From the NCBI GenBank assembly GCA_042562855.1, contig JBHPNE010000002.1, forward strand, positions 7,643-71,642: DNA of 64,000 nucleotides, given 5' to 3'. Below are positions 4,444 to 52,568 of the stretch, one piece after another. How positions within the stretch are numbered: the stretch's first letter is position 1; every line of letters begins with the position of its first letter. This DNA is from Elusimicrobiota bacterium. GTDB lineage: Bacteria; Elusimicrobiota; Endomicrobiia; Endomicrobiales; JAPLKN01. Under the pieces are notes generated by a model, which did no database searches, was not told the origin of the DNA, and saw only the letters and a list, made by a program, of their open reading frames with translations. The position numbers and the translations under genes are program-made.

Positions 4444-6521
<2,078 letters not shown>

Positions 6522-7354: not shown

Positions 7355-10300
7355 ATGAGCAAAATAAAAAGAATTTTTGAAAAGGTGAGTGAAAGATACT
7401 TAAAAAAGCTATCCATTCCGGAACCTTTTGTCGAGGTTTTTGTAAATTTTAAAAAAGGGATTGCGGTTACTACAGCATTGGCATTTCTTTTCACTTCAGT
7501 ATTTGCGCAATCAATTTTTGCATTTACCGATACTAAAGACTTTTCAGATAAAAAAGTCCGCGAAACCTTAAACACGTTCACTATTCCTTATACGATAGGC
7601 AGGGTAACAGACGGAAAATATTATGGCAGCAAAAAAATTGTTATAAACATTCAAGATCTGCATTGCCATGCGGAAGTTCAGGGAAATATTAACAAAATAA
7701 TTGGTTTGTTGGACGATGCATACTCCATTTCAAAGGTGTATATAGAAGGTAGTAGCGGAGACCTCGACACCTCTTGGGTAAAAGCCATAAAAAATGAACA
7801 GTTAAGAAACAAAATAGTGGAAACATTCGTAGAATCCGGAAGGCTTACGGGTGCGGAGTACTATTCCATTCAAAAGAATAAACCAAAAATGCTTAAAGGT
7901 GTAGAAAACGAGAGAATTTATAAGAATAATGTGGTCCGTCTTGGTAAAATATTGGATCAACGCGAAGAAATAGCGGCTCAAATCCCCGCAGTAAAACAAG
8001 AGCTAAGTAGACTAAAAGATAAGTATTACAGCAGATATAATAAAAGGTTAGAGAAATTGCTTACTAGGTATGGAAATAATGAAATAAATACAGAAAAATT
8101 TTATAGGTTACTTGAAAAGTTGGCAAAAAAATCGAAGGTTGATTTTTATGAGTTTGATACAATTAAAAAACTTATTAGCTTAATGAAAGAGCAAAAGAGG
8201 TTAAAATATAAAATAATTAGCAAACAGTTGGCTTCTTATGTTAAACACTTAAAAGACAAGATGCCATACGCAACGTATAAGCTTTTGCTTGAAAAAACAA
8301 GTAATTTTTCAAAATTAGATGAAGTATACACCCACTTAAAAAAACTGTCCTATGCTTATAAAATCAACTTAAGCACAAAATATTCGGAACTAAATAAGTT
8401 TTTCGACTTCATTGATGCGAATCAAAAAATTAACCCAATAGACCTTGTTAGTGAAGAAAGAAAACTAATACAAAAAATCCATCAGAAAACATCTCAGAAT
8501 ATTGCGGAAGGTGAAATTGCCTTTATTTCAGATTTCTTCGCATACTTGGAGGAGTATTTAAATAACAAAATTTCAGCAAATGATTACGAATATTTTCAAA
8601 GAAACAGCAAAGATTTTAAAAAATTGTGGGCAAAATATGTATATTCAGAAAAAATTACAAATCTTGCTCCTTATTATGATTTGTTTGATGTTTTCTATAA
8701 GGTTAACATTGAAAGAAATAAATATTTTATCGAAAACACTCTGGGGAATATCCCGGTACTAAATAGTGGGATAAGTCCAGTTGCAGATATTAACCATATT
8801 GATGAAACATTAAAATCGTTAAAGAATGCCAAAGAAATAATTGTTTTGGTAACGGGTGGTTTCCATACTGAAGGATTGGAAAGATTGCTCAGCAGAAGGG
8901 AAGTTTCTTACCTTGTAATCACTCCGAATGTTACGAAGGATACAAAATTTGCTGACACTGTTTATAATAAGTTTGCAAAACAGCAAGCAAAACGGTTTGC
9001 TTCTCAAACGATGGCTTTAGAAGCCTATTCTAAAAGTTTAGCAACGGGTACCATGGACGAAATTAAACTTAAAGTAGTTCGCGACTTTGCGCAAGATCAG
9101 TTAAAAATTGCATTTAAAGGTAAAAAACCAGAAAAGATTGCCGAGGATATAAACAGCGTTTTTCAAAACAAGGAAAATAATTTGGAAGGAAGTTTTTCAT
9201 ATTTTCCGGAAAAATCATCAGAGAAAGGGAATAAGTATTATTTTGAATATAAGTATAAGGACAAAACTGTTTCTTTGCTTTTGTCGGCGGAAGATGAAAT
9301 AACGATATTTGATACAAAATTTCATTATTTTAAATATCTCTTAAATTCCAAAGAAATAGTAAAAAAAGAAGATGAAAAGGCTGTTAGTTGGGATTTAAAT
9401 AAAATAATGCAGTCTGCTCAAGCTAAGAATCTGGTCGATTTAATTAATGAATTAGTCGAATTGGAGGAAGAATCAGGGCAATATTTAACAGAGTTTAATA
9501 AATCCATAAAAGTAGTATTTATTGAGATGGTTAAAAACAAGATAAGAAGCCAACAAACTTTAGAAGACATTGCCGAGGATTTCGGTTTTTCAAGAGACGA
9601 TACCATTCAATTCAGAAAATCACTCGCGAGTACAGGATTAGCCTTCGCTACAAGACAAGAAGAGTCACTTACTTTAAAGTCAACTTATAGAAAATATAAA
9701 AGCCTTTACAATTTCTTTCATAGAAAGAAAAATCATTTACCCGAAGATTGGACTAACAGAGAAAAGTACGGGGATGAATATGTAAAACAGATGAAGAATG
9801 CGGAAATCTGGCTTGCGCCAATAGTTGAATACGCTAAAATCAGGCGTATTTCAAATGCTTGGAACGAGAAGAAAAAAGAGTTAATAAATGAATTTTTTGG
9901 TGGACATGAATGGAACGAAGATCAAGAAAAGAGAAAATATGCAAAAGGAGGAATTAAAGATATAAGTGAATCCATGGAAAAGGGATCAGTGATAGGTACT
10001 ACTTTAGGTATTATAATTGGTTTGACAATTCAAATAACTCTGTGGATGATTTTTAGCATAGAAAAAATGTCGGCATTGGGAGTAGTGACAATGTTGTACA
10101 TAGCCACACCTGTCATTTTTATTATTTTAGCATCATCTTTGGGAGCGTTTATAGGACATGCCGTTAGCCATAGAAAATATGACAAAGAATATGGAACTAA
10201 GACTAAAGCGGAAAAAGAAAAACTTGAAAGAGAGGGAAAAGAAGTCATCGAGGCACCACTGACAACTGATGTTACAACATTTGAATTGCTAGAGTTGTAT

Positions 10301-13300
10301 TTAAAAAAAGAAGCAAAGAAAGTCTTAAAGAGAGAATTAAAAGATAAGGAACTAGATCTAATTTATGACATAATATCCATTAATGCAAGAATGTATCCCG
10401 GTTATATTTCAAAAAACGATATGTTACAAATACTTGCTGAAGAGATTAAAATGATTATTAATAATTTTAATAATGTGTTTGGCAAGCTACCTTCCGAAAA
10501 AGAGTTGAGCTTATTTTTTGAAAATATAAAATTGAGCCCCGATATTCAAGAGACAGAATCGGAAATGAACAAGATAGTAGAAAAAATACTTAAAGTAAAT
10601 GAGATGTATGACAAATATTTCAATCGTGAACCTGATATCGAAGAATTAATGTTTATTATAGGCCAAATAAATAGCAAGAAAAATAAGGATGATATTATTG
10701 CTGGTATAGAAAAAATACTTGAAAGCATAAAAATAATAGTTAAAGAGTATACACATGAAAAAGAACTTACAAGAAACGAAATTATCTATATTTACAAAGA
10801 GGAGCTAAAAGCCAGCAAACCAAACAAGGAAAAAATATATTTGAAAATGTTGTTAATTCAAAATATATTTAGGCAAAATGTTAAAAGACTTCCCAACGCT
10901 AGAGAAATGAAGTTAATTTCATACAAAACAGAAAGTCAGGAGGAGATAATTGAAAGAATAGAACAAATATCTCTGGTAAGAAAATATGTAAAAGACGAAA
11001 TAAATTATTTACATTTAATGGAGCTAACAGAAATATTAGTAAACAATATCTTAGACATAAAAAAAGGTGACAGGAAGCGCAAGATAACTAAAATATTAAA
11101 AAACTTGAAAATACTTAAGGATGTTTATAGGGAAATATTTGGTTTGCCCGTAATTATACGGGATGCGGAATCTTACAGGAGACAAATCGGAGAAGAATTT
11201 AGTGAGCAAACGGTAAGAGAATATTTATTGAACGTAAAATCACAAAAAGATGAAATTAAAAGGGTTATGGAAATACTGGCAATATTATACGACGAGGGAA
11301 TTACCGGAGTAAAAAAACAAGAATTTATCGATGCGATTGCATACCAATACGGTGTAAATATTGCGAATCTGTTCAGAGAATCATTAATTGACGGCATGGA
11401 ATATATGATAGAATCCCCGGTTACAAATAATATTGATTTCAAAGTATCAGATGAGTTAAAAAGTAAATACGGCGATAAGAATAAAGACAATACCGAATTT
11501 ATATTGAAAAGGATAAGTGAAGCGATATATTTGAAACAAATAGATGACATGCTTGAGGATAAACTGGAGATCACAAGCAGTCTCATTTCACAAAGAGATG
11601 ACCATTTGACTTTTAAAATACGAATAAAAAATGAAGTTGACGAAAAAATGATTATATTTCCGATAAGTAAAAGTAAGAAAAAATATTTTGAAATTGAATA
11701 TCAGATGCTTAAAAAACTCGGGAGTCTGCTCGGTACATTGGAAGTATCGGCAGAAACAGAAGAAATATGCATGAGAAGCGGAAAGTTGGAAGCAATAATA
11801 ATGGAAGACAAAATCGATAAGGAGCAATATGAAACCTTACAAATGATATTAGAGTTTCACATAGAACGGGCCTTGCAAATAGCAGCCGGTAATAATGAAA
11901 TTAGCATATTTAATATTGATGAATATAAAGACAATTATGAAGATGTTTCAAAAGATGCTGCAGAAACATTAAAAAATATAATAATCGAGGCAAAAGAAAT
12001 TTTAGGAAGAAACCCTAGTCTTAAGGAAATATTGGGGATCTCAAAAATTTACTTGAAAAAGCCGCATATAACATCAATTGGGGTTTCTGTTAAAACGTAC
12101 GTAGGAGAGATAACGGAAAAGAGAGCAATAAGGCTAGCGTTCGCTGTGGGTATCGTTAGAGCTTGGCTGAATGATGGCGTTGATACAGATGAATTGTGCA
12201 AAACTTTATATTTAAAATTGATAGAAAACATAAAATCGGAGAAAGAAATATTTGACGATATTGAAAATATTGCAGTAGAATACTTTAGCAGTAACCCTAA
12301 TGTCGCTTTCAAAAATGAATTTAAGAAACAGTATAACTTGGAACAAAAAAGTAACGAGGAAATTATTATCGGTATATTGGAAGATGTATTTGGATCGGAA
12401 TATTTACCGTATAAAGCTGAGCTAATAAAGTTGCGAATGGCGGAAATAGAATTTGATAAAAGGGCGCCTCTGGGAAGGAATATTGTAGAAGTATGGATTA
12501 ATGGGTCACAAAAGGGAATGTTTGATGTAATGTCAAAATTAAAATATGCAAATTGGAGAAAGCTGGAATCAAGCCTCATTAGTATTTTAGATATAAATGC
12601 GGTAAAGGAAATAAAAGCTTTGGAAAAATATAATTCAACTTTCGTTGTCGATGAATCGAAGTACAAAAATTTATTAGACAGAGTTACAAGCTATTTGTCA
12701 AAATTCAAATTATCATATAGCAGCAATATTGATAGCGAAAAATCAAAAAAAATAATAGGAGATCTGGAAAACTTAAAACATGGCATCAAAAATGCACTAT
12801 TAGAATATTACAAAAACTTTGGCATAAATCGAGGAGATAATTTAAATAATGATGTATCTAAATGTTTGCGGACTGTAGTTTTACACGGTGAAGATCCGGA
12901 AGAGGTAGTTAAAAGGTTAGGTTTAAAAGTTTTAAGTAATATGGGGCTTGAAGGCGCACAAGGACAAGCACAGCAGGTGGAACTCACTCAACCAAAAACA
13001 ATTGAGGAAGCGGTTAAAGATTTTACTTCCCAAAATGGCAGTCAAAAAGAAATCAAGGCCCAAAATATTGCGGTAAAACTCGGGAAAAGGTATGAAAATG
13101 AAATTACTTTAGAAAAATTAAAAAACCGTGAAATATTTAAGACAATTAAAAATCTTGTGAAAGATGAGTTCTATAAAAGTGACGAAATGATAAGGTTGAT
13201 AGTACTATATGCGGCTCTATACAAGGCTCCTCGCACAGAGGCATTCAAGCTAGCATTCAGATCCAAAAAATTTGTTGATGGGCATAAAAACTTCAACGTA

Positions 13301-16300
13301 AAACAAAAAGGCAAACTGCTAGAAAAAACCAAAGAGATCCAGGAAAAAGGTTATAGTCTGAAAGTGGCACGTGGGCTTGCAATTATTGCAGCAATTGCAG
13401 CATTTGCAGTTACATTTGCAGTATTTGTTATACCGATTGCATTTATAAAATTAGTAATGAGTATGGTTACTGTGACCATAGCCTTTTTTGTGCCCCCGCT
13501 CCCATATTATAAAAAAATAAAAGGGATACATTTTGAAGAGAATTTAGAATTTCTTAAAACTGGAAAAGGCTTACTTCTTATGCAAGAGGATGGAAAAGAA
13601 AGCGCAGAATTAACTCTTGTAGAAAAGCTGAAAAAGAAATTTACTACCCCTAAAACTATAGATTTATCCACATTTGATTTTGATGCAATGGTTAAATTTG
13701 CAAACGAAAATAAAAAAAGTAATATGTCCTCGGATGTAATATTTGTATGCGTAATCCATGCGTCTATAGAAATTTATGGTCGTTACCAAAATAGTATCAA
13801 TGTACAATTAAAAGAAAAAATAAGTGAGAAAATTATTTACACTTCTTCAGGAGAAGACCTTAGAAAATTATTTAGTGAATTATTGAATTATAATCCTGAT
13901 ATTAAAGCTATGTCTGATTTAGAATTAAAAATAGATTCAAAAATAATTCGAGAATTTGTTAATAAAAGTATAGATGATGCCATAGAAAAACATGAACATA
14001 AAGGGTTGGTAATGCAAATAAAAGATGATATTTTAGAACAAATATCTTACAAGCAAAGAATTTTGGAACAAATTCTGGAAATAATACCCGATGAGCTAAA
14101 AAAAGGTATTACTGCAGAAAAAATACAGGAATCAGTTATTACTGATAATATTGATAATCAGTACAGGTTAAAAAACAACCTGCCCCCAACAATAGTTTTT
14201 AGCGGTGACTTATTCAAGGGATCGTTAAAAGAAACTCCTGACTATATTGCTTTCACTATTGATAAAGAATTTGTAGCAGTAAATACTGTTTTTGGAGAAT
14301 TTGGAAAAGGGGGATTAAGATATTATCCGCCTTCTTCAGAAGAATTTTATGACAGCAAGATTAAAGGAGAAGCTGTAAAACAAGTTTTTATAGAAGATAT
14401 TGATCTTGCAAATGCTATGGATTTAAAAAATATATTTGCAGATGTATTTTTCACTGGTGGGAAAACAATTATTTTAGCAAAACCTACCGTTAAAAAGGAG
14501 GAAGCATTAAGAACACATAAAGATGGAATCATTGAACGTTGGGCCGCTTCTTCAATAATGGCAGGTATGCTCTGCACGCATTACATAGCCGGTCCAGATA
14601 TGAATGCAGGTGACAATGATATGCAGAGGTTAGTTGAAATAGCAGATGCTGTTCAACGTGCTTTATATGAAATGGATCCTGAAAAATATGCCCACTTTAG
14701 AGAACCTTTAAGAGCCACAACTAGTACACCAGACGGATTTTCGCATATGAATTGGCAGGTAACAAGTACAACAGTGTTGTTTGCGCTTCTAACATTACTT
14801 CAGGATAAAAAGGTATGCGAAAAATATGATATTAAAAAAGACGAAAATGGAGATATCAGTATTATTATACAGGGCTTCGGAGATGTTGGAAGTGGTATAG
14901 TAAAAATACTGTATGATACTATAAGGTCCGAAAAAGAGATTATTAAAATTGACAATATCGAGTATGATGTTGATATTATTGAAAAAAATAGAATTTCTCC
15001 AAATCAAACAGAAATTAACGGAAGGAAATACAAAACAAAAAAAGTAAATGAAGATTACATACTACGTCCTGATTATGGAATAAAGGTTGTTGGATTGACT
15101 ACCAGTTGGATGAATGATGAGAATAATCCTGAAATTGGTGGTATATACAACGAAAATGGCTTAGATCCGGACGAATTGATACGGTTGAGAGAAAAAATAG
15201 AAAAATATGGTACAACATCGGTAAATCTTCATAAAGATTATAATGATAAAGAAGATACCGGTGTAACAGTAAGAGGGAGTAGCCGTGACGTGCTAACAAA
15301 GCCAGCCAACTTTTTAATTCCTGCAGCAGGGCCGTCGCAATTTACAAGCAGAGAATTAGAGCCTGACCCACAAGCTATAATAGACAACGGTTATGTTCTT
15401 GTTGAGGAGCTCGATGTAGATGGCGTAATTGAAGGAGCCAATGATTCTTTCAAGAAAGGTGTTGCGGAAATATTTCATCATGTTTTGCATAAGTTATTTT
15501 TGCCAGGTCCAATGTGTAATGCAGGCGGAGTACAGACATCTCAAGATGAATGGACGTACATTATTTTGATTGGATTGGAGGAAGTAATAAAAAATATGCT
15601 AAGTCTAAGAGAAATAACACGTTCAAAAATTACCACTTTAACCATTTATAATATACGAAGAATTTTAGAGGAGTTGAAAAAATCCGAATACAAAAAAACC
15701 CCATCAGATATTTTAGACGAATTTGTAAATTCTATTAGAGATCAAATGAAAAACATTGATGAATATGATCAGATTATTATTGATCGAATTACTAATACTA
15801 TTATTGATAAATTTCGTAATAGAAAAGATATTGCAAAAATAATTGCAGAATTTACTTATGCAAGAAGAAAAGCAATGAATAATATTGAAGTATCGGACGA
15901 AGCGATAGATGATATTATTCAAAATATTAAGCAAGGAGATCATTTTAAGGCCAGGTCATCAGCATATGAGCTTAGGCTATTGGATCTTAATAGACTATCG
16001 GCTAAGAAAAGATATGCATTAGTTATGAGATTAATAGGAATTGTAAGGGATATAGGATTATCGTATAAAATTCGCGGCGCAGTAGTTGACAGTTTATCTT
16101 CTATTGCAATAAACACTCCTGATACTATTGAGGGGCAAAGATTGTCTGATGCCATAAAGCAAAGTCTGAACTCATTAATTAATAATCCTAAATTCCTTAA
16201 TCTGTATCCATATATTTGGTCGACTAATCTTAGGATCAACCATTTTAAAGTTAAACATGATGAAAAAATTGAGCAGGGAAAACTGCCAAATGTAGAATCA

Positions 16301-19300
16301 TTAGGTTTTCTAAAAAAGCATGGAACATCTGGCTGGCGCAAAGGCTTAAAAGCTTCTTGGGAACAGGATTTAGCTTGGGAACAGGATCTAACAAATCTTG
16401 CTATTGAAATGAAGCTCGAAAAGAATTTTCTTAAAAGATCTCATAAAAGAGCGTTTATCATTGAAGTACAAAAAAAAGTAGAAAAATACTTCTATTCACT
16501 CAACAAAGATAGAAATATACAGAAAATAAAAGATGAAAAAGAACCTGGAATATTCAATACTCCTGTTCTCGCAACTTACAATCGAGAATTTAAAAATGAA
16601 ACAATGAGGTATGCATTGCGCCATGGGCTTTTGTCTAAAGTTCCTACAGTGGGGTATCTTCGTGAAAATATTGAGAAGTATAGAGAGCATTATGAAGCAT
16701 TTGATTATTCCGGTGATAGTGCAAGTGCATCACGGTTGACGGTTGAAAACATGAAAGCGTTGGAAATAGTGGTGGAGATGGCTGAGAATGATGAAATTGA
16801 TAATGATACAAAGGTAGATATTGGTTTTATGAATTGTTCAATGAAAGATGAAAAAAGGATAGTAGTGTATAGGTTTAAGGGAAAACACGTGATAGAAACT
16901 CAGAAATATGAATTAAACAGTGCAGGCGATAGCGTTGTGCAGATTGGGGAAATACTAGAAGTATACACTTTAGATAAGTTTAGAAATATTAACGACGCTG
17001 AGATTAAAGAAAAGTTAGTTCATTTGTACAACAATGGAGTATTGATGTATTACCTAGAAAAATTTGTAAAACTAGAAGGCAATGAAAACAATATTCAAAT
17101 TCTTAATAACATTAAGAGAGTGTTAGAAAAGTTCAAATGGTCTAAAGCCAAAGAAGGCTTTGAGCCTGGCGATGTTGCACTAGCATTTCATAGCCAAGGA
17201 TATAGAATAGGTAAAATATTTGGTGATGCTAATTTGTCACTTATTACAGACACTCGTCAAAAAAAGGACAAGTTGCCCTTTGTAAATGAATCGAGTATTA
17301 AAAAGGCCATTGAATTCTTTAAAGAGCCTAACAAATCCGAGCAAGAAGAAATAAGCAACTTTTTTGATAATTTCGAAGAAAATTATGGATATAAATGGGA
17401 CGAAGCCCTCGGCAGTACCATAGTTCAGCAAATTGCAGGTGCAGGGGAATATGTAAGCATTCCGTATGACCACTTTGTAAAAATATATCTTTGGGCAGCA
17501 TACAAAATAGCTCCGTATAAGGAAGACATAAGAGATAAATCGTTTGCCAAGGGGCATATACACTATACTCCGGATCAAATAAAGGAAGTAGATAACGATG
17601 TTGAAAAAAGTATTGCAAAAATTGAAAGTATAGATGATCTTGTTATGGACCTCATAATTTCTTTCGTTGACTATTCTCTGATTCCAGAAATTCAGAAAGA
17701 AGCTACAAAATTAGCGGAAAGCATTTCAAAAAACATTAAAGATGGAATGGAGTCCATACTTCATCTTAAACACAATATAGAGACAGTGCCAGGTGAAGGA
17801 TTGCCTTGGGTGCAAGATGAAGATAGTGAAAATCTAGAACAACTAAAACAAGGTATTTTTGATAAAATAATGAAAGCAGAGGAATCTTCTCTCAAACCAC
17901 ACAAACCATATTATGATGAAGATGAATCAAAAAAACAGGCAAAAGATCTTTCTGAGGCAATAATTAAAAAAGACACTGATGATATTCGTTTTTATGTGAA
18001 AAAAATAGTGTTAAGATATGCTGGAGCGGATTCTGAGCATTTTCAAAGTACCTATTTTGACATAGTCAGGTACTGCAAAAAACTTGCTTGGTATCTTGGA
18101 GAATTGAAAGAAATAGAGGAATATTCACCGTATTTTGAAGTGATAACAGTAGCAATGGTGCAGTCATATGAAATGATAATCCCAATTATTGAACAATCTA
18201 TCATAACATTAAACGAAGAAAAAAATGATAATTACTGGACTAAGGGAAATGCAAAGGCAATAACGGAAGGATTAGGGGGGGTTACAGAAGGAGTCAATAA
18301 TTTATTAACAGACTTTAATAAAAAATTTGTTACCTCAAATATGGTTAAAATTTGTAAGGATTTGAAAGGAAAAGCTGATAAACTCGAAAAAAGTACAAAG
18401 GAATTCTTGAAACACATGGATGCAGTGATTGAACTTATGGAACTTATTAAAATAGTGATAGTGGATGAAAAAAATGTTCCGTTTGATAAGCTTAAGCTTG
18501 GTGAGGATTTGAAAGGTAAGTATATCATGAAAGTTGGTTTGGTAGAGATTATATGGGGTACCGATAAGGATAAAGTCCTTGGCATGCTCCGTGAGTTTGT
18601 GACACATGATTCTCGTAAATATGTAAAGCATGAGTTAATTTATATTTTAATAGAATACATAGGAAATACATTTAAACTTGATGCAGCCTTTTTTAATCAT
18701 GATGATGTGAAAGCGTTTATTCCTGAGCTTGTGCGTAAAAAAATAATTAAAAATATCAAAGAGGGAGAAAAATGGTATAAACAGACAATACATGACCCGC
18801 TTATTGTGGAAATATTGGAAGAAAGTTATAAAATAAAAGGTACGGCAAATAGACATGCACTAAACAATTTAGTCGAAGGAATATTTCTAAATGATAAAGA
18901 TGCAATCATTTATGGTATCAGAGAGTTAACAGCGGACAACATAAAGAAATCTGAATCGTTTGAAGAAAAATATGGCGATGCAATACAGTTTTGTAATGAT
19001 TATATTTATTTTATGGGTAAATTGAAAGGCAGAGTTGAATTTGAATCACATTTTAAGGCAATAACAGTGGCTATGGCTCAGGCGTATAGAAACATAGCTT
19101 CAATTGCGACCGAAGCGATAAAAAAGTTGGAAGAAAATGAATATGAAGAGCAATCAGTTGCAGCAAACAGGAATGCGATTTTGAAAGTATTGGAAGAATT
19201 GGACAAGAATTCTAAGGAGCTTCTGACTGGATTTTCGCCTGAATATATTAATGATGAAATGGTTAAAATTAAGAAGGAACTTGAGAATGAAGTATGGCAG

Positions 19301-22300
19301 CTTATGGTGTCAGATATTCAAATTGATAATGAACTTAAAAGGTATGCGGAAAAGCTTAAATTTGATCCCGAAGAATTTATTTATCTCAAAGGGTTATATA
19401 AGCAATTTATAGAAAGCGTTGGGAAGAAGGAGGTTGCAAAGATATATCTCGGAGACAATTTCAAAAGTGCATCGCAAATGTCAGAAACAGAGAGGAGAAA
19501 ATGGTTTGGTCCCGAATATAATGATATTAAAAAAGATCATAAAAAAAATGTTAAAGCTGCCAAGACAGTAAATGTTATAGAAAAACGTATGAATGGAGGA
19601 ATTTGGACATCTGCTCTGGAAAAAATGGAATATTTAAAGAGAATATTGAACGATTTGTCTGATAGGGGAGGAAGGTTTACAAAAGATGGAAAATGTTTCA
19701 TTGGCCCAAAATCTACGGATCTTTTCTTTGATGTCGAAGGAGTTATCTATATTGATAGCGAAGGCAAGGAAGGATTGCGTACAGTAAAAGTAAATATATC
19801 AGAAGCAAGAATATTGCAGTTGCTAGAGTCAGTTGAGAGAAAAGAATATGCTAGTGTTTCCATACAACAATTGGCAAGTCAAAAAACAATAGATGCTATA
19901 AATGACCTATACGATACAATCTATTTGTACGACAGGATGGATGATAGGATCCCCAGTGATAAGAAGCGCGCTTATAAGGAAATACTGGAAGAATATGAAA
20001 TGTATAGGGAGCCGTTAATCCAGGGAACCCTTCCGACCATTGATCCCAAAACAAATAGATTATCAGAAAAATTTCTTGCACCCGGAGGACATGGATATTG
20101 GGCTTTTAAAGAGTTCTTAACCATTCTAGGGGTAGAAAAAGAGGAAGCTGAAAATATTATTGTTGTTATAGCTAATGAGGACGGGCTTAATAATTTATAC
20201 GATCAGAATTTAATAGGGTATATGAAACGCACTGACCTTCCGGTTATGTTACTCTCGACAACAAGAACAGCTTTAGATAATAAAGGAGGTTTATTTGGAA
20301 TATTAGAACGTATTCTTGCAATGCTAGAGGCAAAGGAAGCAGAATTATCAGGCAGAGATAAACTTGGAATGTTTTATAAAATGGGACTTATACCGGGTTT
20401 TGGAGAATTGGGCAAAGAACGATTCAATCTTAATACGTCATTGTTTAATGTTGAAAAACTTTCTCCGCTTCTGAAAGAGCTTGTTGATGATATAATTGGC
20501 AAAGAGCGGTTTTATGAAATTATAAAACCTCCATTATTGCAAAATATTAAAAAAGGAGAAGTTGGAAATCCTAATGATCCACCAAGAATTCAGATGGAGG
20601 GATTGTTGGCATCAGTTATTTTAGAACTTAACAGTTATTTTTTATTATTAGGAGATAGTCCAGAAGATAGTAGAGTAAAAAATTTGCTTAGAACAAAAGG
20701 AATATTAAGAAAAAATGATAAGGGGGAAGAGATTGTTCGTTTTGTTGAAGTTATCAATATAGACACTGAAGATAGGACAGATTTCTTTACTCCTATAAAA
20801 ACACCGATTGATTTTTGCTTACAATACAATAGTGATTTATTTGGAGTTAATGCAAAGACATGGAAATTAAAATATCAGAAAAAGGGTGCATTGCCTGCCT
20901 TTCAGCTACATCCTTTCTATAACAGTCTAGACCAAATGGAAATAGCATTTGGTAATACAAGTACAGTTGGTCTTAAAGCACTCACAATAAATGGCAAAGT
21001 ATATTTTCCTGACACAATATTGGAAGGAAATGTATTAATGGCGTGTTTTACCGATGAACCATTTGATTTAACGCTTCAAGAGAACAGAGAACAATTGATA
21101 GAAGTTTTTGATTTGGCACTTCAAGAGAACATGATAGAAGTTGGTGGAGGATCTGGGATAAGCGAGGTAGATGGAAAACTTAAATTAAAAAATATTGCGA
21201 TAACAATCGACAAAGATGGAAGAATTTCTGTTAATGGAATGGGTAAACTTTCTGAAGAAAAAATGCTGATTTTGCCCATAACAAAGAAAATTTCTGCAAG
21301 AATAATTAGATTGTTTGGAGGAGATCCCGCAAAGCATCAGAAAGTCTATAAAGCTTTGGCTTTCATTCTGGCACCTATAATAGAAACGGTTCTATTAATA
21401 TTTTATTACCTCCCATCTGTTTTTTCAAAATCTACTGAAGACCATCCAACGGGCCTTTCAAAATTCGCTGAAGACCATGACCCTGCGACACAAGAAGAGA
21501 GAGGTCAGCTTAAAAAAGGGGTAAAAGCTGTTGTAAAAACGGGCCTTCTTTTTGCATTTGCTGCAGGGATTTATTTCTTATCTTTATTCATATTGAACCC
21601 TTCATTAGCTTTGATAGCATCTAATTGGTTATCGAACGCTCTAGAAATATTAGTTTTGTTTGTTGTAGGATTAGTTGCGGGACACGCCGGAGTAAACATT
21701 GTAATTTGGAGGAAGCAGAAGCATTTAATTATTAAAAGAGATAATGACACTATAATACAGGTTGATTCTCCTGACGACGGAGCAAAATTCGCTGTTGATA
21801 AACTTGCGAGAACTATCAGGGAAAATGATATTATAGGCAAGGAAACAGTGGTAATGTTAGCTACTGGTGGTACTATGGAGCCGTTTTATAACGAACTTGT
21901 ACGCAGAAACAAATTGAGCTCAAAACATAAAAATTATCTTAATCTCTCTAACTTGATTATTTTTAATTTAGACGAATATGAAGGAATTGAAATTTTCAGA
22001 AATGAGATTTTTGAAAATTTAATAGAAGAAACAAATGTAAATCCTGATAATTTCTATTTCTGGTATGGTAAAAATCCGATAAAAGAACAAATAGAACGAA
22101 TGGAAAAACTGATTTCAAACTACGGCGGGATTGATTTTGCTTTCGTAGGTATAGGCGCAAACGGCCATGTAGGGAAAAATGAGCCTGGGACAAATCCGGA
22201 AGTTTCTGGAGCAGTTGTGATAAGTCCGCAAACAAGGCGTGACAACGCCAGGGCGTTTGATAATAAAGAAGAATTAGTCCCGGAAAAGTGGTTCGGTTTT

Positions 22301-24922
22301 GGCTTGGAGCAGATTTTTGCAGCCAAAGAAATTTATTTAATGGTATACGGTCATAGCAAAGCAGGGGCAATATTAAAAACTCTAAATGGGCCGGTTACGG
22401 ACAATGTCCCGGCAACCTACTTTAGAAATCATCCGAACATGCACTATGTTTTGGATAAAAAAGCTTCATCTTATCATTTAATATTTGAACAAGTGGTAAA
22501 AATGCTGGAGGATCAAAAAAAGACAAATGTAGGCATGTTATATGGCGGATCAATAAGGGGCATTATTGTAGGGTATCTAGAATCTCGTTGTCCAATAAAT
22601 GAAATTGCCCCGGATCTTGGAAAAGATTTTGGCATAGCTGTTTCAAAGCAATATGGGAAAGACGATTACCTAAATTCATCTGAAATTGAACATGCAAGAG
22701 ATTTGGCGAATCTTGGCGGTGCAAGAGTTGTTGTTGCTATGCCCTTGCCCGAAGGAATAAACAAGAGAAACTTTAAAGAGCATTCCCTAATAAATATGTG
22801 TGATACAACCGAGAAACTATTAGGGTTTCGTATTGTTGGCAAAGGAAGATCAAACGTGTATGCTACCGAAATCAAGACAAATAAAGGCAAAGTAGCGGTA
22901 TTTTTCTATAACAAAGCAAAAGTGGAACATGGTTTTGAGATAATGCATTGGATAACAGAAATGCCTGTTACGTTAGAGGTTTTGCATAGGTCCTTTAAAA
23001 ATTTTAACTTAAAAGTAATTGAAACTGATAGACCAATATCCTTGGAAGATTTTGATATCAGTAAAAATTTTGAAAATTCTATCATAGTGTTTAACAAAAT
23101 TGGAGACCTCAAAAAAGATAGAGTCAAAACTGGTTATGATATGACGCTAACAGAAAAAACCGATATATACGATTATTTTATTCTTCTAAATAATTTTGCA
23201 AACAGAAAGAAAGAAGAATTTACTGCTTCCGATCCTATTATTTCTGAAACTATAAATATTAACGAAAATATTGAAGAATTGGAATCTTCTTTATCGGAAG
23301 AAAGCCTGGATAACATGCAAAAAAGGAGTGTCGATACTATAGTGCTCAGGTCTTTGCCTGAACAATTATCATCAGAATGGTTAGAAAAATTGAGCAACGC
23401 AATAAATTTGGCCCATAACAAAAAATTGAAAGTGGTAATTGACTATACAGTCAATAAAAAGTTCACGCAAAATAACTACATGGAAAATTTTTCTGCCGAC
23501 ATGAAAGTTATTCTTAAAAAATCAAACGCGGACGGCGTAAGATTGGATTTCTCAAGCTTGAAGTTAGGTTTAGATAATTATCCAAGATTAGGAATGCTTG
23601 CTATTAAAAAATTCAAAAGCACCATAATAAAATTGAGAACCATAATAATTAAAACAAAACCGGGGGCAATAGTTGGTAGTATTTTGCCTGAGATTTTATT
23701 CCCTGAGACAATGAAGCCTAAGATTCCAATTAAAATCACTCCTGAATCTTCTAAGATGACTGATGGTGAAAAATTAGTGCGGAAGATATATCTTGAAGAT
23801 TTAGACAGGCATTATTTTGAAAAATACAAGAATAGTTATCTTGAAGAAACGGATTTGGAAATTTCGAAACTCTTTAAGAATCTTAATATTAAAAAGGTTG
23901 TAAGAGTTTTATTCGGAAACAATATTCCAGAAAATACATCCAATTCCTGGCTTGAAATCTGCTTAAATGACAACAAGGGCTTAAAAGTGCCTTTAGGCGG
24001 CTTTGGTGTTGATATCAAGGAATTAGAAACCAAATTGTCAAAAGATTTAATAAAGGATGTGGAGATTTTAGGATTGCCGGCTGAACTGGCCAAAGAGATT
24101 TTTGAGACATATGAAGCTCGTTCACTAATAAGCAATATAACTCAACTGTTTAAAAATAAGATTGAAAGCAGAAAAAATAGTCCTGATTATAGATTTCAAA
24201 AGGGAAGACACAGAGCTCTTAATATTAAGAAAAGATACATAGTGCCATACACAGGCAGTGAAAAAATAGCAACTATTGTTCAAGTTTTAAGTGAATATCT
24301 AAGCTTAGATGATGAAAATGTGGAATCGTGGTATAAGAAAAACGAAGCAGTATTGAAAGCATTATTAGAAAAGCATGATTTGAAAATCTTGAATAACTCT
24401 GCAGATGTGAAAAAACAATCACAGATTCATGAAGCAGCCGGATATTTGCTCGGATCCGCCGAAAGAGTTCTTGCTGAAGACCTGATAAAAAAGGAAAACT
24501 TTACAAAGAAGCACGCCGAGTTATACGCAATGGCGCACGTTAAAACTCTTTTACAACCTCATCTTATTCATGCTGATTCCATGAAGAGTGATTTTTCAGG
24601 TTTAAATCCTGAGACAGTACATAAAGCATCAAATTATTTTGATCAGTATAAAAAAGCGATGGCCCTGGCAAATGAAGCTATACGTTTACATGGCGAAAGC
24701 GGGAAATATACTGCTGAAGAAGTATACGATATTGCGGATGAAGCAATAAACCTATTGGCTGATTTACTTGAAAACACGACACCAGCAGGTCAAGCTGCGA
24801 CTACGCTTCAGGAGCTCCTTGATGTTTTTGGAGACAGAGAATCAGGATCCTTAGCTGAAAAAATCGGCAAAGAAGCCATGATCAGTATCGAAGCGGTGCA
24901 AAGCATAACCACTGCTGCATAA
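7355..24922 (+). CDS. Giant multidomain membrane protein (5,855 aa), function unknown
   Basis: Single open frame of 17,568 nt. GGAGG lies 6 nt upstream of ATG 7355, and a terminator lies about 25 nt after the TAA. No other frame in the same span stays open beyond ~205 codons. Contains TM segments and three enzyme-like domains (listed as sub-features). Confidence 0.85.
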   Translation: MSKIKRIFEKVSERYLKKLSIPEPFVEVFVNFKKGIAVTTALAFLFTSVFAQSIFAFTDTKDFSDKKVRETLNTFTIPYTIGRVTDGKYYGSKKIVINIQDLHCHAEVQGNINKIIGLLDDAYSISKVYIEGSSGDLDTSWVKAIKNEQLRNKIVETFVESGRLTGAEYYSIQKNKPKMLKGVENERIYKNNVVRLGKILDQREEIAAQIPAVKQELSRLKDKYYSRYNKRLEKLLTRYGNNEINTEKFYRLLEKLAKKSKVDFYEFDTIKKLISLMKEQKRLKYKIISKQLASYVKHLKDKMPYATYKLLLEKTSNFSKLDEVYTHLKKLSYAYKINLSTKYSELNKFFDFIDANQKINPIDLVSEERKLIQKIHQKTSQNIAEGEIAFISDFFAYLEEYLNNKISANDYEYFQRNSKDFKKLWAKYVYSEKITNLAPYYDLFDVFYKVNIERNKYFIENTLGNIPVLNSGISPVADINHIDETLKSLKNAKEIIVLVTGGFHTEGLERLLSRREVSYLVITPNVTKDTKFADTVYNKFAKQQAKRFASQTMALEAYSKSLATGTMDEIKLKVVRDFAQDQLKIAFKGKKPEKIAEDINSVFQNKENNLEGSFSYFPEKSSEKGNKYYFEYKYKDKTVSLLLSAEDEITIFDTKFHYFKYLLNSKEIVKKEDEKAVSWDLNKIMQSAQAKNLVDLINELVELEEESGQYLTEFNKSIKVVFIEMVKNKIRSQQTLEDIAEDFGFSRDDTIQFRKSLASTGLAFATRQEESLTLKSTYRKYKSLYNFFHRKKNHLPEDWTNREKYGDEYVKQMKNAEIWLAPIVEYAKIRRISNAWNEKKKELINEFFGGHEWNEDQEKRKYAKGGIKDISESMEKGSVIGTTLGIIIGLTIQITLWMIFSIEKMSALGVVTMLYIATPVIFIILASSLGAFIGHAVSHRKYDKEYGTKTKAEKEKLEREGKEVIEAPLTTDVTTFELLELYLKKEAKKVLKRELKDKELDLIYDIISINARMYPGYISKNDMLQILAEEIKMIINNFNNVFGKLPSEKELSLFFENIKLSPDIQETESEMNKIVEKILKVNEMYDKYFNREPDIEELMFIIGQINSKKNKDDIIAGIEKILESIKIIVKEYTHEKELTRNEIIYIYKEELKASKPNKEKIYLKMLLIQNIFRQNVKRLPNAREMKLISYKTESQEEIIERIEQISLVRKYVKDEINYLHLMELTEILVNNILDIKKGDRKRKITKILKNLKILKDVYREIFGLPVIIRDAESYRRQIGEEFSEQTVREYLLNVKSQKDEIKRVMEILAILYDEGITGVKKQEFIDAIAYQYGVNIANLFRESLIDGMEYMIESPVTNNIDFKVSDELKSKYGDKNKDNTEFILKRISEAIYLKQIDDMLEDKLEITSSLISQRDDHLTFKIRIKNEVDEKMIIFPISKSKKKYFEIEYQMLKKLGSLLGTLEVSAETEEICMRSGKLEAIIMEDKIDKEQYETLQMILEFHIERALQIAAGNNEISIFNIDEYKDNYEDVSKDAAETLKNIIIEAKEILGRNPSLKEILGISKIYLKKPHITSIGVSVKTYVGEITEKRAIRLAFAVGIVRAWLNDGVDTDELCKTLYLKLIENIKSEKEIFDDIENIAVEYFSSNPNVAFKNEFKKQYNLEQKSNEEIIIGILEDVFGSEYLPYKAELIKLRMAEIEFDKRAPLGRNIVEVWINGSQKGMFDVMSKLKYANWRKLESSLISILDINAVKEIKALEKYNSTFVVDESKYKNLLDRVTSYLSKFKLSYSSNIDSEKSKKIIGDLENLKHGIKNALLEYYKNFGINRGDNLNNDVSKCLRTVVLHGEDPEEVVKRLGLKVLSNMGLEGAQGQAQQVELTQPKTIEEAVKDFTSQNGSQKEIKAQNIAVKLGKRYENEITLEKLKNREIFKTIKNLVKDEFYKSDEMIRLIVLYAALYKAPRTEAFKLAFRSKKFVDGHKNFNVKQKGKLLEKTKEIQEKGYSLKVARGLAIIAAIAAFAVTFAVFVIPIAFIKLVMSMVTVTIAFFVPPLPYYKKIKGIHFEENLEFLKTGKGLLLMQEDGKESAELTLVEKLKKKFTTPKTIDLSTFDFDAMVKFANENKKSNMSSDVIFVCVIHASIEIYGRYQNSINVQLKEKISEKIIYTSSGEDLRKLFSELLNYNPDIKAMSDLELKIDSKIIREFVNKSIDDAIEKHEHKGLVMQIKDDILEQISYKQRILEQILEIIPDELKKGITAEKIQESVITDNIDNQYRLKNNLPPTIVFSGDLFKGSLKETPDYIAFTIDKEFVAVNTVFGEFGKGGLRYYPPSSEEFYDSKIKGEAVKQVFIEDIDLANAMDLKNIFADVFFTGGKTIILAKPTVKKEEALRTHKDGIIERWAASSIMAGMLCTHYIAGPDMNAGDNDMQRLVEIADAVQRALYEMDPEKYAHFREPLRATTSTPDGFSHMNWQVTSTTVLFALLTLLQDKKVCEKYDIKKDENGDISIIIQGFGDVGSGIVKILYDTIRSEKEIIKIDNIEYDVDIIEKNRISPNQTEINGRKYKTKKVNEDYILRPDYGIKVVGLTTSWMNDENNPEIGGIYNENGLDPDELIRLREKIEKYGTTSVNLHKDYNDKEDTGVTVRGSSRDVLTKPANFLIPAAGPSQFTSRELEPDPQAIIDNGYVLVEELDVDGVIEGANDSFKKGVAEIFHHVLHKLFLPGPMCNAGGVQTSQDEWTYIILIGLEEVIKNMLSLREITRSKITTLTIYNIRRILEELKKSEYKKTPSDILDEFVNSIRDQMKNIDEYDQIIIDRITNTIIDKFRNRKDIAKIIAEFTYARRKAMNNIEVSDEAIDDIIQNIKQGDHFKARSSAYELRLLDLNRLSAKKRYALVMRLIGIVRDIGLSYKIRGAVVDSLSSIAINTPDTIEGQRLSDAIKQSLNSLINNPKFLNLYPYIWSTNLRINHFKVKHDEKIEQGKLPNVESLGFLKKHGTSGWRKGLKASWEQDLAWEQDLTNLAIEMKLEKNFLKRSHKRAFIIEVQKKVEKYFYSLNKDRNIQKIKDEKEPGIFNTPVLATYNREFKNETMRYALRHGLLSKVPTVGYLRENIEKYREHYEAFDYSGDSASASRLTVENMKALEIVVEMAENDEIDNDTKVDIGFMNCSMKDEKRIVVYRFKGKHVIETQKYELNSAGDSVVQIGEILEVYTLDKFRNINDAEIKEKLVHLYNNGVLMYYLEKFVKLEGNENNIQILNNIKRVLEKFKWSKAKEGFEPGDVALAFHSQGYRIGKIFGDANLSLITDTRQKKDKLPFVNESSIKKAIEFFKEPNKSEQEEISNFFDNFEENYGYKWDEALGSTIVQQIAGAGEYVSIPYDHFVKIYLWAAYKIAPYKEDIRDKSFAKGHIHYTPDQIKEVDNDVEKSIAKIESIDDLVMDLIISFVDYSLIPEIQKEATKLAESISKNIKDGMESILHLKHNIETVPGEGLPWVQDEDSENLEQLKQGIFDKIMKAEESSLKPHKPYYDEDESKKQAKDLSEAIIKKDTDDIRFYVKKIVLRYAGADSEHFQSTYFDIVRYCKKLAWYLGELKEIEEYSPYFEVITVAMVQSYEMIIPIIEQSIITLNEEKNDNYWTKGNAKAITEGLGGVTEGVNNLLTDFNKKFVTSNMVKICKDLKGKADKLEKSTKEFLKHMDAVIELMELIKIVIVDEKNVPFDKLKLGEDLKGKYIMKVGLVEIIWGTDKDKVLGMLREFVTHDSRKYVKHELIYILIEYIGNTFKLDAAFFNHDDVKAFIPELVRKKIIKNIKEGEKWYKQTIHDPLIVEILEESYKIKGTANRHALNNLVEGIFLNDKDAIIYGIRELTADNIKKSESFEEKYGDAIQFCNDYIYFMGKLKGRVEFESHFKAITVAMAQAYRNIASIATEAIKKLEENEYEEQSVAANRNAILKVLEELDKNSKELLTGFSPEYINDEMVKIKKELENEVWQLMVSDIQIDNELKRYAEKLKFDPEEFIYLKGLYKQFIESVGKKEVAKIYLGDNFKSASQMSETERRKWFGPEYNDIKKDHKKNVKAAKTVNVIEKRMNGGIWTSALEKMEYLKRILNDLSDRGGRFTKDGKCFIGPKSTDLFFDVEGVIYIDSEGKEGLRTVKVNISEARILQLLESVERKEYASVSIQQLASQKTIDAINDLYDTIYLYDRMDDRIPSDKKRAYKEILEEYEMYREPLIQGTLPTIDPKTNRLSEKFLAPGGHGYWAFKEFLTILGVEKEEAENIIVVIANEDGLNNLYDQNLIGYMKRTDLPVMLLSTTRTALDNKGGLFGILERILAMLEAKEAELSGRDKLGMFYKMGLIPGFGELGKERFNLNTSLFNVEKLSPLLKELVDDIIGKERFYEIIKPPLLQNIKKGEVGNPNDPPRIQMEGLLASVILELNSYFLLLGDSPEDSRVKNLLRTKGILRKNDKGEEIVRFVEVINIDTEDRTDFFTPIKTPIDFCLQYNSDLFGVNAKTWKLKYQKKGALPAFQLHPFYNSLDQMEIAFGNTSTVGLKALTINGKVYFPDTILEGNVLMACFTDEPFDLTLQENREQLIEVFDLALQENMIEVGGGSGISEVDGKLKLKNIAITIDKDGRISVNGMGKLSEEKMLILPITKKISARIIRLFGGDPAKHQKVYKALAFILAPIIETVLLIFYYLPSVFSKSTEDHPTGLSKFAEDHDPATQEERGQLKKGVKAVVKTGLLFAFAAGIYFLSLFILNPSLALIASNWLSNALEILVLFVVGLVAGHAGVNIVIWRKQKHLIIKRDNDTIIQVDSPDDGAKFAVDKLARTIRENDIIGKETVVMLATGGTMEPFYNELVRRNKLSSKHKNYLNLSNLIIFNLDEYEGIEIFRNEIFENLIEETNVNPDNFYFWYGKNPIKEQIERMEKLISNYGGIDFAFVGIGANGHVGKNEPGTNPEVSGAVVISPQTRRDNARAFDNKEELVPEKWFGFGLEQIFAAKEIYLMVYGHSKAGAILKTLNGPVTDNVPATYFRNHPNMHYVLDKKASSYHLIFEQVVKMLEDQKKTNVGMLYGGSIRGIIVGYLESRCPINEIAPDLGKDFGIAVSKQYGKDDYLNSSEIEHARDLANLGGARVVVAMPLPEGINKRNFKEHSLINMCDTTEKLLGFRIVGKGRSNVYATEIKTNKGKVAVFFYNKAKVEHGFEIMHWITEMPVTLEVLHRSFKNFNLKVIETDRPISLEDFDISKNFENSIIVFNKIGDLKKDRVKTGYDMTLTEKTDIYDYFILLNNFANRKKEEFTASDPIISETININENIEELESSLSEESLDNMQKRSVDTIVLRSLPEQLSSEWLEKLSNAINLAHNKKLKVVIDYTVNKKFTQNNYMENFSADMKVILKKSNADGVRLDFSSLKLGLDNYPRLGMLAIKKFKSTIIKLRTIIIKTKPGAIVGSILPEILFPETMKPKIPIKITPESSKMTDGEKLVRKIYLEDLDRHYFEKYKNSYLEETDLEISKLFKNLNIKKVVRVLFGNNIPENTSNSWLEICLNDNKGLKVPLGGFGVDIKELETKLSKDLIKDVEILGLPAELAKEIFETYEARSLISNITQLFKNKIESRKNSPDYRFQKGRHRALNIKKRYIVPYTGSEKIATIVQVLSEYLSLDDENVESWYKKNEAVLKALLEKHDLKILNNSADVKKQSQIHEAAGYLLGSAERVLAEDLIKKENFTKKHAELYAMAHVKTLLQPHLIHADSMKSDFSGLNPETVHKASNYFDQYKKAMALANEAIRLHGESGKYTAEEVYDIADEAINLLADLLENTTPAGQAATTLQELLDVFGDRESGSLAEKIGKEAMISIEAVQSITTAA
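7600..8940 (+). other. Giant ORF sub-region: possible Tiki/ChaN/TraB-superfamily-like bilobed domain with a long helical insert
   Basis: VINIQDLHCHAEVQ...VYIEGSSG near 7640-7750 and IIVLVTGGFHTEGL near 8841-8880 resemble the H/E ... GxxH signature of that superfamily. Motif-level only. Confidence 0.25.
9800..10190 (+). other. Giant ORF membrane module copy 1
   Basis: AEIWLAPIVEY ... FFGGHEWNEDQEKRKYAKGG ... two hydrophobic helices (VIGTTLGIIIGLTIQITLWMIF; ALGVVTMLYIATPVIFIILASSLGAFIGHAV). Confidence 0.6.
13185..13550 (+). other. Giant ORF membrane module copy 2
   Basis: LIVLYAALYKAPRTE ... KFVDGHKNFNVKQKGKLLEK ... two hydrophobic helices (GLAIIAAIAAFAVTFAVFVIPIAFI; LVMSMVTVTIAFFVPPLPYY). 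Confidence 0.6.
14180..15700 (+). other. Giant ORF domain: Glu/Leu/Phe/Val-dehydrogenase-like (GDH-like)
   Basis: GKGGLRYYP; LANAMDLKNIFADVFFTGGKTIILAKP; IAGPDMNAGDNDM; IIIQGFGDVGSG; GIYNENGLDPDEL; LIPAAGPSQ; VIEGANDSF; LPGPMCNAGGVQTSQDEW. These are collinear with the canonical GDH motif order. Confidence 0.7.
17938..19303 (+). repeat. Giant ORF internal duplication of a ~150-aa helical module (copies ~17938-18385 and ~18857-19303)
   Basis: FEVITVAMVQSYEMI vs FKAITVAMAQAYRNI; KKDTDDIRFYVKKI vs LNDKDAIIYGIREL; NNLLTDFNKKFVTSNMVKICKDL vs KELLTGFSPEYINDEMVKIKKEL. Confidence 0.7.
19480..21250 (+). other. Giant ORF domain: UDP-sugar pyrophosphorylase-like (UDPGP family)
   Basis: KRMNGGIWTS (compare KLNGGLGTSMG); LAPGGHGYWAF (compare PPGHGD); VVIANEDGLNN (compare VSNIDNLG); TTRTALDNKGGLFG (compare KTRADVKGG); FNLNTSLF; IQMEGLLASV; RTDFFTPIKTPIDFCLQYNSDLF (compare RSRFLPVKTTSDLLLVMSNLY); LTINGKVYFPDTILEGNV C-terminal beta-helix-like tail. 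Confidence 0.72.
21340..21725 (+). other. Giant ORF membrane module copy 3
   Basis: ALAFILAPIIETVLLIFYYL ... KFAEDHDPATQEERGQLKKG ... hydrophobic helices (GLLFAFAAGIYFLSLFILNP; ALEILVLFVVGLVAGHAGVNIVIW). Confidence 0.6.
21765..22480 (+). other. Giant ORF domain: glucosamine-6-phosphate deaminase / 6-phosphogluconolactonase-like (NagB fold)
   Basis: VVMLATGGTMEPFYNEL; IIFNLDEY; FAFVGIGANGHVGKNEPG; RRDNARAF; IYLMVYGHSKAGAILKTLNGPV; VPATYFRNHPNMHYVLD. Collinear with E. coli NagB, with the Asp/His/Glu catalytic positions present. Confidence 0.8.
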
Positions 24923-25129: not shown

Positions 25130-25387
25130 ATGGAAAATAATGTTGGCCAAAAAGACACTAAGCAGGTAATGGATATCAGGGAGCTTTCTGAATATCTCGG
25201 TATCGGTAAATCAAAGATTTACAACCTAATACGCAACAAAAAAATTCCTGCATCCCGCATTGGGCGGCAGTATAGATTTTCAAAAGAAGTTGTTGATGCT
25301 TGGCTTAAAGAAAGAATAATAACAACAAAAGAAGACGCAAATTTGTCCTTGTTCAAAAAAGAAAAAATAAATGAGAATAAAGGATAG
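25130..25387 (+). CDS. Excisionase-family / MerR-like helix-turn-helix DNA-binding protein
   Basis: 85 aa. MDIRELSEYLGIGKSKIYNLIRNKKIPASRIGRQYRFSKEVVDAWL is the typical HTH_17 pattern. Confidence 0.8.
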   Translation: MENNVGQKDTKQVMDIRELSEYLGIGKSKIYNLIRNKKIPASRIGRQYRFSKEVVDAWLKERIITTKEDANLSLFKKEKINENKG

Positions 25388-41035: not shown

Positions 41036-41036
41036 A

Positions 41037-49637: not shown

Positions 49638-49648
49638 AATAACTAATT

Positions 49649-52566: not shown

Positions 52567-52568
52567 AC

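Follow-up and report, generated by a model that had tools for sequence, protein, structure and literature searches.

A recurrent module in a giant open reading frame

Within a 64,000-nucleotide stretch of contig JBHPNE010000002.1 from an Elusimicrobiota bacterium (the whole of which we call the window), a single open reading frame (ORF) spans nucleotides (nt) 7355–24922 on the forward (+) strand and encodes a protein of 5,855 amino acids (aa), with a GGAGG Shine-Dalgarno sequence 6 nt 5′ of its ATG. Our subject is a module that recurs along this giant protein and appears to be defined by a small set of glutamate and histidine motifs. An earlier note, made from the DNA sequence alone, had proposed three copies of a conserved module of ~125 aa that partition the chain into four blocks. 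The recurrence of such a module between large blocks is borne out by the motif statistics and external profiles described below; a fourth copy, at aa 3373–3482, had been overlooked, and its presence splits the protein into five blocks rather than four.

Hydropathy of the whole protein (Kyte-Doolittle, 19-aa window, cutoff of at least 1.6) gave hydrophobic stretches only at aa 36–57, 878–940, 2001–2052 and 4664–4787, and the last three are exactly the sites that the earlier note had named. All four copies (motif-bearing parts at aa 812–950, 1946–2072, 3373–3482 and 4655–4794) present the same order of motifs, AP..E followed by F...H and then by H...(N/H), and in three of them a transmembrane (TM) hairpin lies between F...H and H...(N/H). 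The copies are numbered 1, 2, 4 and 3 along the chain, copy 4 being the one without a hairpin, situated between copies 2 and 3.

Copy 1 (aa 792–950, nt 9728–10204; this and all features of the giant protein are on the + strand) carries HLPEDWT upstream, followed by APIVE (nt 9815–9829) and FFGGH (nt 9893–9907); its TM pair (aa 880–933, nt 9992–10153) leads into HAVSH (nt 10157–10171) and a lysine-rich patch. Copy 2 (aa 1946–2072, nt 13190–13570), with APRTE (nt 13226–13240), FVDGH (nt 13271–13285), a TM pair at aa 2005–2052 (nt 13367–13510) and HFEEN (nt 13529–13543), is the nearest of the window copies to the family consensus FVDMH. Copy 4 (aa 3373–3482, nt 17471–17800) comprises APYKE (nt 17510–17524), FAKGH (nt 17543–17557) and HLKHN (nt 17762–17776), with acidic amphipathic helices in place of the hydrophobic pair. 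Copy 3 (aa 4636–4794, nt 21260–21736) begins with KMLILPITKK and continues with a fully hydrophobic helix that bears APIIE (aa 4664–4691, nt 21344–21427), FAEDH (nt 21464–21478) and a TM pair (aa 4727–4789, nt 21533–21721) that encloses HAGVN (nt 21683–21697), with RKQKHLIIKR after it; a NagB-like domain starts 14 aa further on. The modules sit at domain borders. The picture of paired TM helices ending near a histidine thus holds for copies 1–3 and fails for copy 4, and because of its extra hydrophobic helix copy 3 has either two or three helices, so that the even number proposed for every module is not certain.

A regular-expression scan of the entire chain located four AP..E motifs and no more (aa 821, 1958, 3386 and 4673), and likewise just four of F..(G/D/E)H (aa 847, 1973, 3397 and 4704). 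Every AP..E is paired with an F...H within 40 aa downstream, 11–31 aa from the glutamate, and in all four copies an H...(N/H) follows 69–84 aa past the histidine of F...H (aa 935, 2059, 3470 and 4777). The longer motif of the earlier note, F-x-x-x-H-x5-Q-x2-(R/G)-x3-K, retains its F...H part in all copies, while its Q/R/K part is not conserved in relatives.

The four observed AP..E/F...H pairs compare with a mean of 0.02 and a maximum of 2 in 5,000 composition-preserving shuffles, whereas direct pairwise similarity of the window copies is weak (Smith-Waterman z 2.4–4.0; no more than 7 bits with leave-one-out hidden Markov models, HMMs), so that it is the motif statistics, together with relatives outside the window, that carry the case for homology of the copies. 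Two further points weigh against our interpretation: some features of the motif patterns were settled once the sequence had been looked at, and copy 4 is backed by its motifs and one marginal BLAST match (to copy 2; 24% identity over 142 aa, E 0.07). The weak pairwise values and the partly post hoc patterns would fit a chance resemblance, in which a protein rich in Lys and Ile would contain generic TM hairpins with no relation to one another, their motifs being accidental. We regard this explanation as very improbable in view of the pairing of all four AP..E motifs and of the external comparisons that follow.

The module in a family of giant exported proteins

Loci around BioA in Endomicrobia held long ORFs, two of which match the giant protein over aa 32–565 (32% identity, E 1e-97; 30% identity, E 5e-60). 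A scan with an alignment of this conserved N-terminal domain, or block A (aa ~60–565, nt 7532–9049; motifs IQDLHC..EVQ and VTGGFHT.G), led to 34 loci, mostly in Endomicrobia/Elusimicrobiota and several per genome. Block A is 30–40% identical to Endomicrobia giant proteins, at 30 loci or more, with E down to 2e-128 in the candidate set. Four of the 34 loci are more distant (22–27% identity in block A): three belong to Omnitrophota and one to a metagenome-assembled genome (MAG) of Planctomycetia. Searches with block A in Pfam, NCBIfam and PDB gave no match.

The ORFs of the family, from 2,300 aa to over 3,900 aa in length, present classical AxA signal peptides and internal hydrophobic clusters. 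In almost every complete member the C-terminus is ...(I/L)L.AA, as the close of a conserved pattern of ~45 aa in which '..a.tIyeLi..Ya.RK' is followed, ~15 aa later, by 'a..iL.AA' at the C-terminus (long-ORF ends of loci L179, L184, L187, L190, L192, L196–L198, L201–L203, L099 and L144). The giant protein of the window shares both ends. Its N-terminal hydrophobic segment (aa 36–57, nt 7460–7525, from the Kyte-Doolittle scan) ends in ...VFAQSIFA, resembles the AxA-type signal peptides of the other members and appears to be a signal peptide or a signal anchor. Its C-terminal tail of ~44 aa (aa 5812–5855, nt 24788–24919), which ends in ...EAVQSITTAA, follows the pattern conserved in the family, and the upstream pattern 'AATTLQELLDVFGDRE' is common to L187, L192, L201 and others; the likeness of the tail to the family is one of pattern, with no significant phmmer match. 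Such a tail could act as a sorting or degradation signal.

Past block A, BLAST found no similarity between the giant protein and its relatives, or among the members themselves. What the family shares is the ~500-aa N-terminal block, a variable middle with enzyme-like domains and the C-terminal ...AA tail. The giant protein is on these grounds a member of a family of very long proteins, hitherto undescribed, that is found mostly in Endomicrobia/Elusimicrobiota and has weaker relatives in Omnitrophota.

We then considered every internal TM cluster of the family proteins together with the 110 aa upstream, taking controls from the same proteins. F...H followed 40–105 aa further on by H...(N/D/H) was present in 22 of 68 cluster segments and in 10 of 752 controls, a 24-fold enrichment. 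The external modules have a common layout: G..E, ~13 aa, F(V/A).MH, ~25 polar residues (R..GA..I), two TM helices and finally (N)...HA.(H/Y)N. In terms of helices, the conserved Glu lies on a first helix, F-x-x-x-H closes a second, short one, and H-x-x-x-N comes where the second TM helix ends. Phe, His and His are invariant in an alignment of 20 of them at 13–38% identity.

Profiles of these modules lead back to the window. A profile of 14 'typical' external modules, from eight loci, matches copy 2 (25.2 bits, E 2.8e-8), and a broader profile of 21 modules scores it at 19.1 bits. As an isolated segment copy 2 reached 34.2 bits, compared with a mean of 9.1 and a maximum of 27.7 in 500 shuffles that preserve the hydrophobic layout, while the reversed giant protein scored -9. 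Copies 1 and 3 both have their best external match at the same site of L196/L197 (aa ~720–826, E 5e-4 to 3e-3), with 'IIAPIIEAPLL' against 'ILAPIIETVLL' as the shared stretch, and an iterated search from copy 3 recovered copy 1 at 66 bits. An HMM built from the four L196/L197 modules alone gave three positive scores, which were copies 1, 3 and 2, in motif register. The match of copy 2 above layout-preserving controls, the top rank of the window modules with independent external HMMs and the enrichment at TM clusters all speak against chance.

Like copy 4, the L196/L197 modules have no TM pair between their motifs, which points to the motif set, and not the hairpin, as the defining part. The sequence comparisons thus indicate that the internal hydrophobic clusters of the family are copies of one module, a hallmark of the family; that its constant part is the Glu/His/His motif set; and that the window protein holds four diverged paralogous copies, one of which lost or never had its TM pair.

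Direct searches had not revealed these relatives. A word-seeded search with aa 780–4800 returned only the giant protein itself, a word-seeded search with the four-copy profile gave no match, and the same profile, run exhaustively with HMMER against 1.84 billion representatives, returned only four stretches of the giant protein. The module is nevertheless not limited to this protein, since it recurs in giant proteins of Endomicrobia/Elusimicrobiota.

Possible relation to Rce1-like/CPBP proteases

The Rce1-like/CPBP (Abi) proteases, among them MmRce1, bacterial Abi immunity proteins and Staphylococcus aureus MroQ, carry AP..EE...R, F...H and H...N on helices 1, 2 and 4 of their core. In an alignment of real CPBP proteins taken from annotated plasmids, P..EE...R, F...H and H...N were invariant. 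The window modules present the same three motifs in the same order and with the same immediate neighbours: a Pro at -3 from the Glu, a Phe at -4 from the first His and, in three of the four copies, an Asn at +4 from the second His. The last motif would, as in CPBP, close the final helix of a helical core.

Some members of the family come closer. The first internal cluster of L193 ('FIAPVLEELIFR...FSAAH...HSINN') matches the full PF02517 model at 22.6 bits (gathering threshold 22.4, E 1.3e-4), and lower scores were obtained for a module of the Omnitrophota locus L206 (16.9 bits) and for L178, the closest relative (11.8 bits). Four CPBP-like family modules aligned to real CPBP proteins with an hhalign probability of 87% (E 4e-6). 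PF02517 matched 3 of the 20 external modules, and every other Pfam family matched at most two. In a few relatives, then, the module is a recognisable CPBP domain.

For the window copies themselves, several results weigh against such an origin. None of them matched PF02517 in Pfam at E≤10, their hhalign probability against the real CPBP alignment was 0.2–1%, and CPBP HMMs run on the giant protein gave at most 0.4 bits or left it unreported. The 'typical' external modules fared similarly, with a probability of 0.7% against CPBP and of 2.6% against the CPBP-like family modules, where the motifs alone were in register. AlphaFold2 models of copies 1 and 3, from a four-row alignment, were all-helical and unusable, with predicted local distance difference test (pLDDT) values of 50 and 54, which makes a fold search with them meaningless. 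The motifs depart from CPBP as well. Motif 1, usually AP..EE..FRG on a TM helix, is not matched: the residue in the place of the second Glu is Y, A, D or T in the four copies, the Arg at +5 is found in copy 1 only, copy 4 having Lys, and the AP..E helix is hydrophobic only in copy 3. Motif 2 is intact in all four copies (FFGGH, FVDGH, FAKGH and FAEDH), in segments that are hydrophilic in the window protein. For motif 3, HAGVN of copy 3 lies inside its second TM helix, HFEEN (copy 2) and HLKHN (copy 4) lie outside hydrophobic segments, and copy 1 has H...H (HAVSH) instead of H...N. Finally, the Glu and the first His are 11–31 aa apart, compared with 32 in CPBP.

From sequence, CPBP membership of the window copies is thus not demonstrated statistically. 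The shorter Glu-to-His spacing, the lost second Glu and Arg and the hydrophilic F...H segments speak for either heavy remodelling or independence. On the strength of the motif set and the family context, we nonetheless give a little less than an even chance to the proposal that the window modules are stripped-down descendants of the glutamic intramembrane endopeptidase core of Rce1-like/CPBP proteins. Since some family modules grade into CPBP, the module is probably a remote variant of a fold already known, not one that is entirely new. The earlier suggestion that it is no described domain stands as far as the modules of the giant protein found no match in Pfam, NCBIfam or PDB, and falls short in this respect.

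In comparison with CPBP, the window modules have a single Glu and usually no Arg, and their Glu and F...H segments lie outside the membrane, except for the Glu helix of copy 3. The two histidines are 68–84 aa apart instead of ~35, one copy is devoid of TM helices, and the unit is repeated within a protein of 5,855 aa, CPBP being a stand-alone protein of ~220 aa. A parallel is SpdC of S. aureus, a catalytically inactive scaffold of CPBP fold that lost the catalytic residues and kept the full TM core. The likeness would lie in a CPBP-derived membrane domain put to a non-CAAX role, fused to or working with other domains; the difference is that the window modules keep the residues and lose part of the membrane embedding.

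A proposed membrane staple with a putative polar site

The interpretation that we favour, by a narrow balance of probability, is that the module is a family-wide membrane staple with a conserved polar site, possibly derived from CPBP. The N-terminal block would be exported, as in relatives with signal peptides, and three internal hairpins would fasten the chain to the cytoplasmic membrane, with a stapling interval of ~1,100–1,400 aa. Each hairpin would enter the membrane and return, leaving the blocks mostly on the side of the exported N-terminal block; this same-side placement is a plausible prediction. A third spanning helix in copy 3, if present, would flip the last block to the opposite side.

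Each hairpin would lead the chain back and so place the residues that flank it (Glu, first His and His/Asn pair) at the same face of the membrane, where they could converge on one putative polar site, probably one that binds metal or water. If the modules descend from CPBP, the first two core helices would no longer be in the membrane. The selected function is probably this polar site and not anchoring alone, since its residues are kept in sequences that have otherwise diverged to ~20% identity, and since they persist in a copy without TM helices.

A less probable explanation, though one of some weight, is that the modules are purely structural membrane anchors unrelated to CPBP, which tether and space the enzyme-like blocks. 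AP..E would then cap the N-terminal end, and F..GH the C-terminal end, of a juxtamembrane helix whose length varies, and H...N would mark the end of a helix. Helix caps commonly favour Pro at N1, Glu near N3 and Gly at C', a Glu-to-His distance of 11–31 aa suits a single capped helix that differs in length between copies, and the surroundings of the Glu and of F...H are amphipathic or hydrophilic; the lack of significant profile similarity to CPBP, in the window copies and in the typical external modules, agrees with this account too. It meets its main difficulty in copy 4 and in the L196/L197 modules: with the motif set kept where there is no TM pair, anchoring cannot explain the conservation of the motifs. 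The invariance of Phe, His and His among the 20 external modules is also hard to reconcile with mere anchors, as is the bona fide Rce1-like domain with the same motifs at the internal TM clusters of some members.

The surroundings of the modules bear on a further possibility. The motif 'aKLEL(P/G)' brackets many external modules, ~30 aa before the Glu and ~10 aa after H...N (L185, L186, L195 and L203), and copy 3 shows an echo of it at matching distances (KMLILP upstream, nt ~21260–21280, and KHLIIK downstream, nt ~21719–21736). It may be a recognition or pairing element, on thin evidence. If a recognition site, it would fit modules that are working, partly membrane-released CPBP-type proteases and that cut the exported precursor at or near themselves, which would make the ORF a bacterial polyprotein yielding five separate proteins, membrane-tethered or released. 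The location of the modules exactly between blocks suits this scenario, as do the catalytic-type Glu, His and His kept in the window and likewise across the family, with Asn in three of the four copies. Embedded peptidase domains have also been proposed to cleave giant proteins (bioRxiv 10.1101/2023.11.21.568195). We nevertheless consider self-processing improbable: motif 1 is degenerate (one Glu and, as a rule, no Arg), the window copies show no significant link to CPBP, and the bracketing motif is weak or absent at copies 1, 2 and 4.

Giant proteins of Elusimicrobiota and Omnitrophota

The giant protein can be set beside the membrane-anchored 'multi-enzyme metabolic' giants known from Omnitrophota (bioRxiv 10.1101/2023.11.21.568195; 10.64898/2026.06.07.730766). 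Both have a very long ORF, a signal peptide, scattered TM helices and highly divergent domains of central-metabolism enzymes, and both are sequence orphans. Three Omnitrophota MAGs encode block-A relatives, at 22–27% identity. The window protein differs in coming from another phylum, Elusimicrobiota, whose Elusimicrobia are noted in the accessible literature as rich in huge proteins, and in its size, 5.9 kaa (thousand aa) compared with at least 10 kaa. The long proteins of Omnitrophota are characterised there as 'architecture conserved, sequence unique', a picture matched by the absence of BLAST similarity past block A in our family.

In the accessible parts of both preprints the TM helices of giant proteins are counted and not analysed as conserved units. 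A term search of bioRxiv 10.1101/2023.11.21.568195 found no mention of CAAX, CPBP or Rce1, and 'CPBP' was likewise not found by term search in the accessible literature on giant or huge proteins of Omnitrophota/Elusimicrobia. What we describe is a repeated conserved membrane module, probably related to CPBP, in an undescribed family of giant exported proteins.

Giant bacterial genes have so far been mainly curiosities, whose products may act as one chain or as cut pieces. The internal TM clusters of this family, as copies of a single conserved unit that bears residues of protease type, offer Glu/His/His positions to mutate, borders for the blocks and a search profile. A CPBP origin would mean a fold that sheds half of its membrane embedding and yet retains its polar residues. 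Should self-processing prove true, the giant ORFs of Elusimicrobiota and Omnitrophota would be true bacterial polyproteins, whose products are several membrane-stapled periplasmic enzymes.

Other domains and the genomic setting

The blocks between the modules include enzyme-like domains. A divergent domain resembling Glu/Leu/Phe/Val dehydrogenases occupies aa ~2317–2734 (nt 14303–15556), in the block between copies 2 and 4, and a NagB-like (glucosamine-6-phosphate deaminase) domain follows copy 3 at aa 4808–5040 (nt 21776–22474; E 2e-28 to PDB 2bkv); besides these, the protein has a domain similar to UDP-glucose pyrophosphorylase. In the block between copies 4 and 3, BLAST detected an internal duplication of ~145 aa (aa 3531–3677 and 3838–3983, nt 17945–18385 and 18866–19303), with halves 30–35% identical (E about 1e-7), which is unrelated to the module.

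The nearest relatives of the NagB-like domain include two multi-enzyme fusions of 1.7–2.0 kaa, P0004 and P0005, which have a hydrophobic signal-like N-terminal segment and no internal TM modules. P0004 ends in ...LVSA and P0005 in ...FAVAA. The latter (1,999 aa; ENA sample ERZ27297570) combines FBPase, transaldolase and NagB-like domains and is encoded in tandem after two large genes, one of more than 2,859 aa and one of 2,429 aa with starch-synthase and methyltransferase domains; this arrangement suggests that giant genes for multi-enzyme proteins form arrays.

G+C content is 30–34% in the giant gene and 37–41% in the genes that flank it. Its neighbours are ordinary genes of a bacterial chromosome (SerRS, BioA/BioD, PolA, Rho, SecA, Lnt and RF2), with type IX secretion system (T9SS)-like and Tad-pilus genes also among them. 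SecA and BioA of the window are 68% and 64% identical, respectively, to those of Elusimicrobia/Endomicrobiales MAGs, and less so to all others, which places the source among uncultured Elusimicrobiota, close to Endomicrobia.

Directly 3′ of the giant gene, at nt 25130–25387, lies a small gene of the HTH_17 (excisionase) type, and the distant relative P0004 likewise has HTH_17 genes downstream. The idea that HTH_17 is a constant follower of such giant genes was dropped; the adjacency is probably a coincidence, because no HTH_17 gene was found at the 34 family loci. Further on, nt 25463–25726 hold an ORF of 87 aa, without a Pfam match, in which a pair of 22-aa repeats (VKRVDGYLYFIDKAGDISRAKM and VKKASGYLYFMDKAGDVSRAKM) is joined to a poly-Lys tail. 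Also downstream of the giant gene and on the same strand, at nt 39905–41960 and 48780–53468, are T9SS-type genes (a protein with a CHU_C/FlgD_ig C-terminal domain, and PorP/SprF) and a Tad/Flp pilus cluster composed of RcpC, a T2SSE ATPase and two T2SSF proteins.

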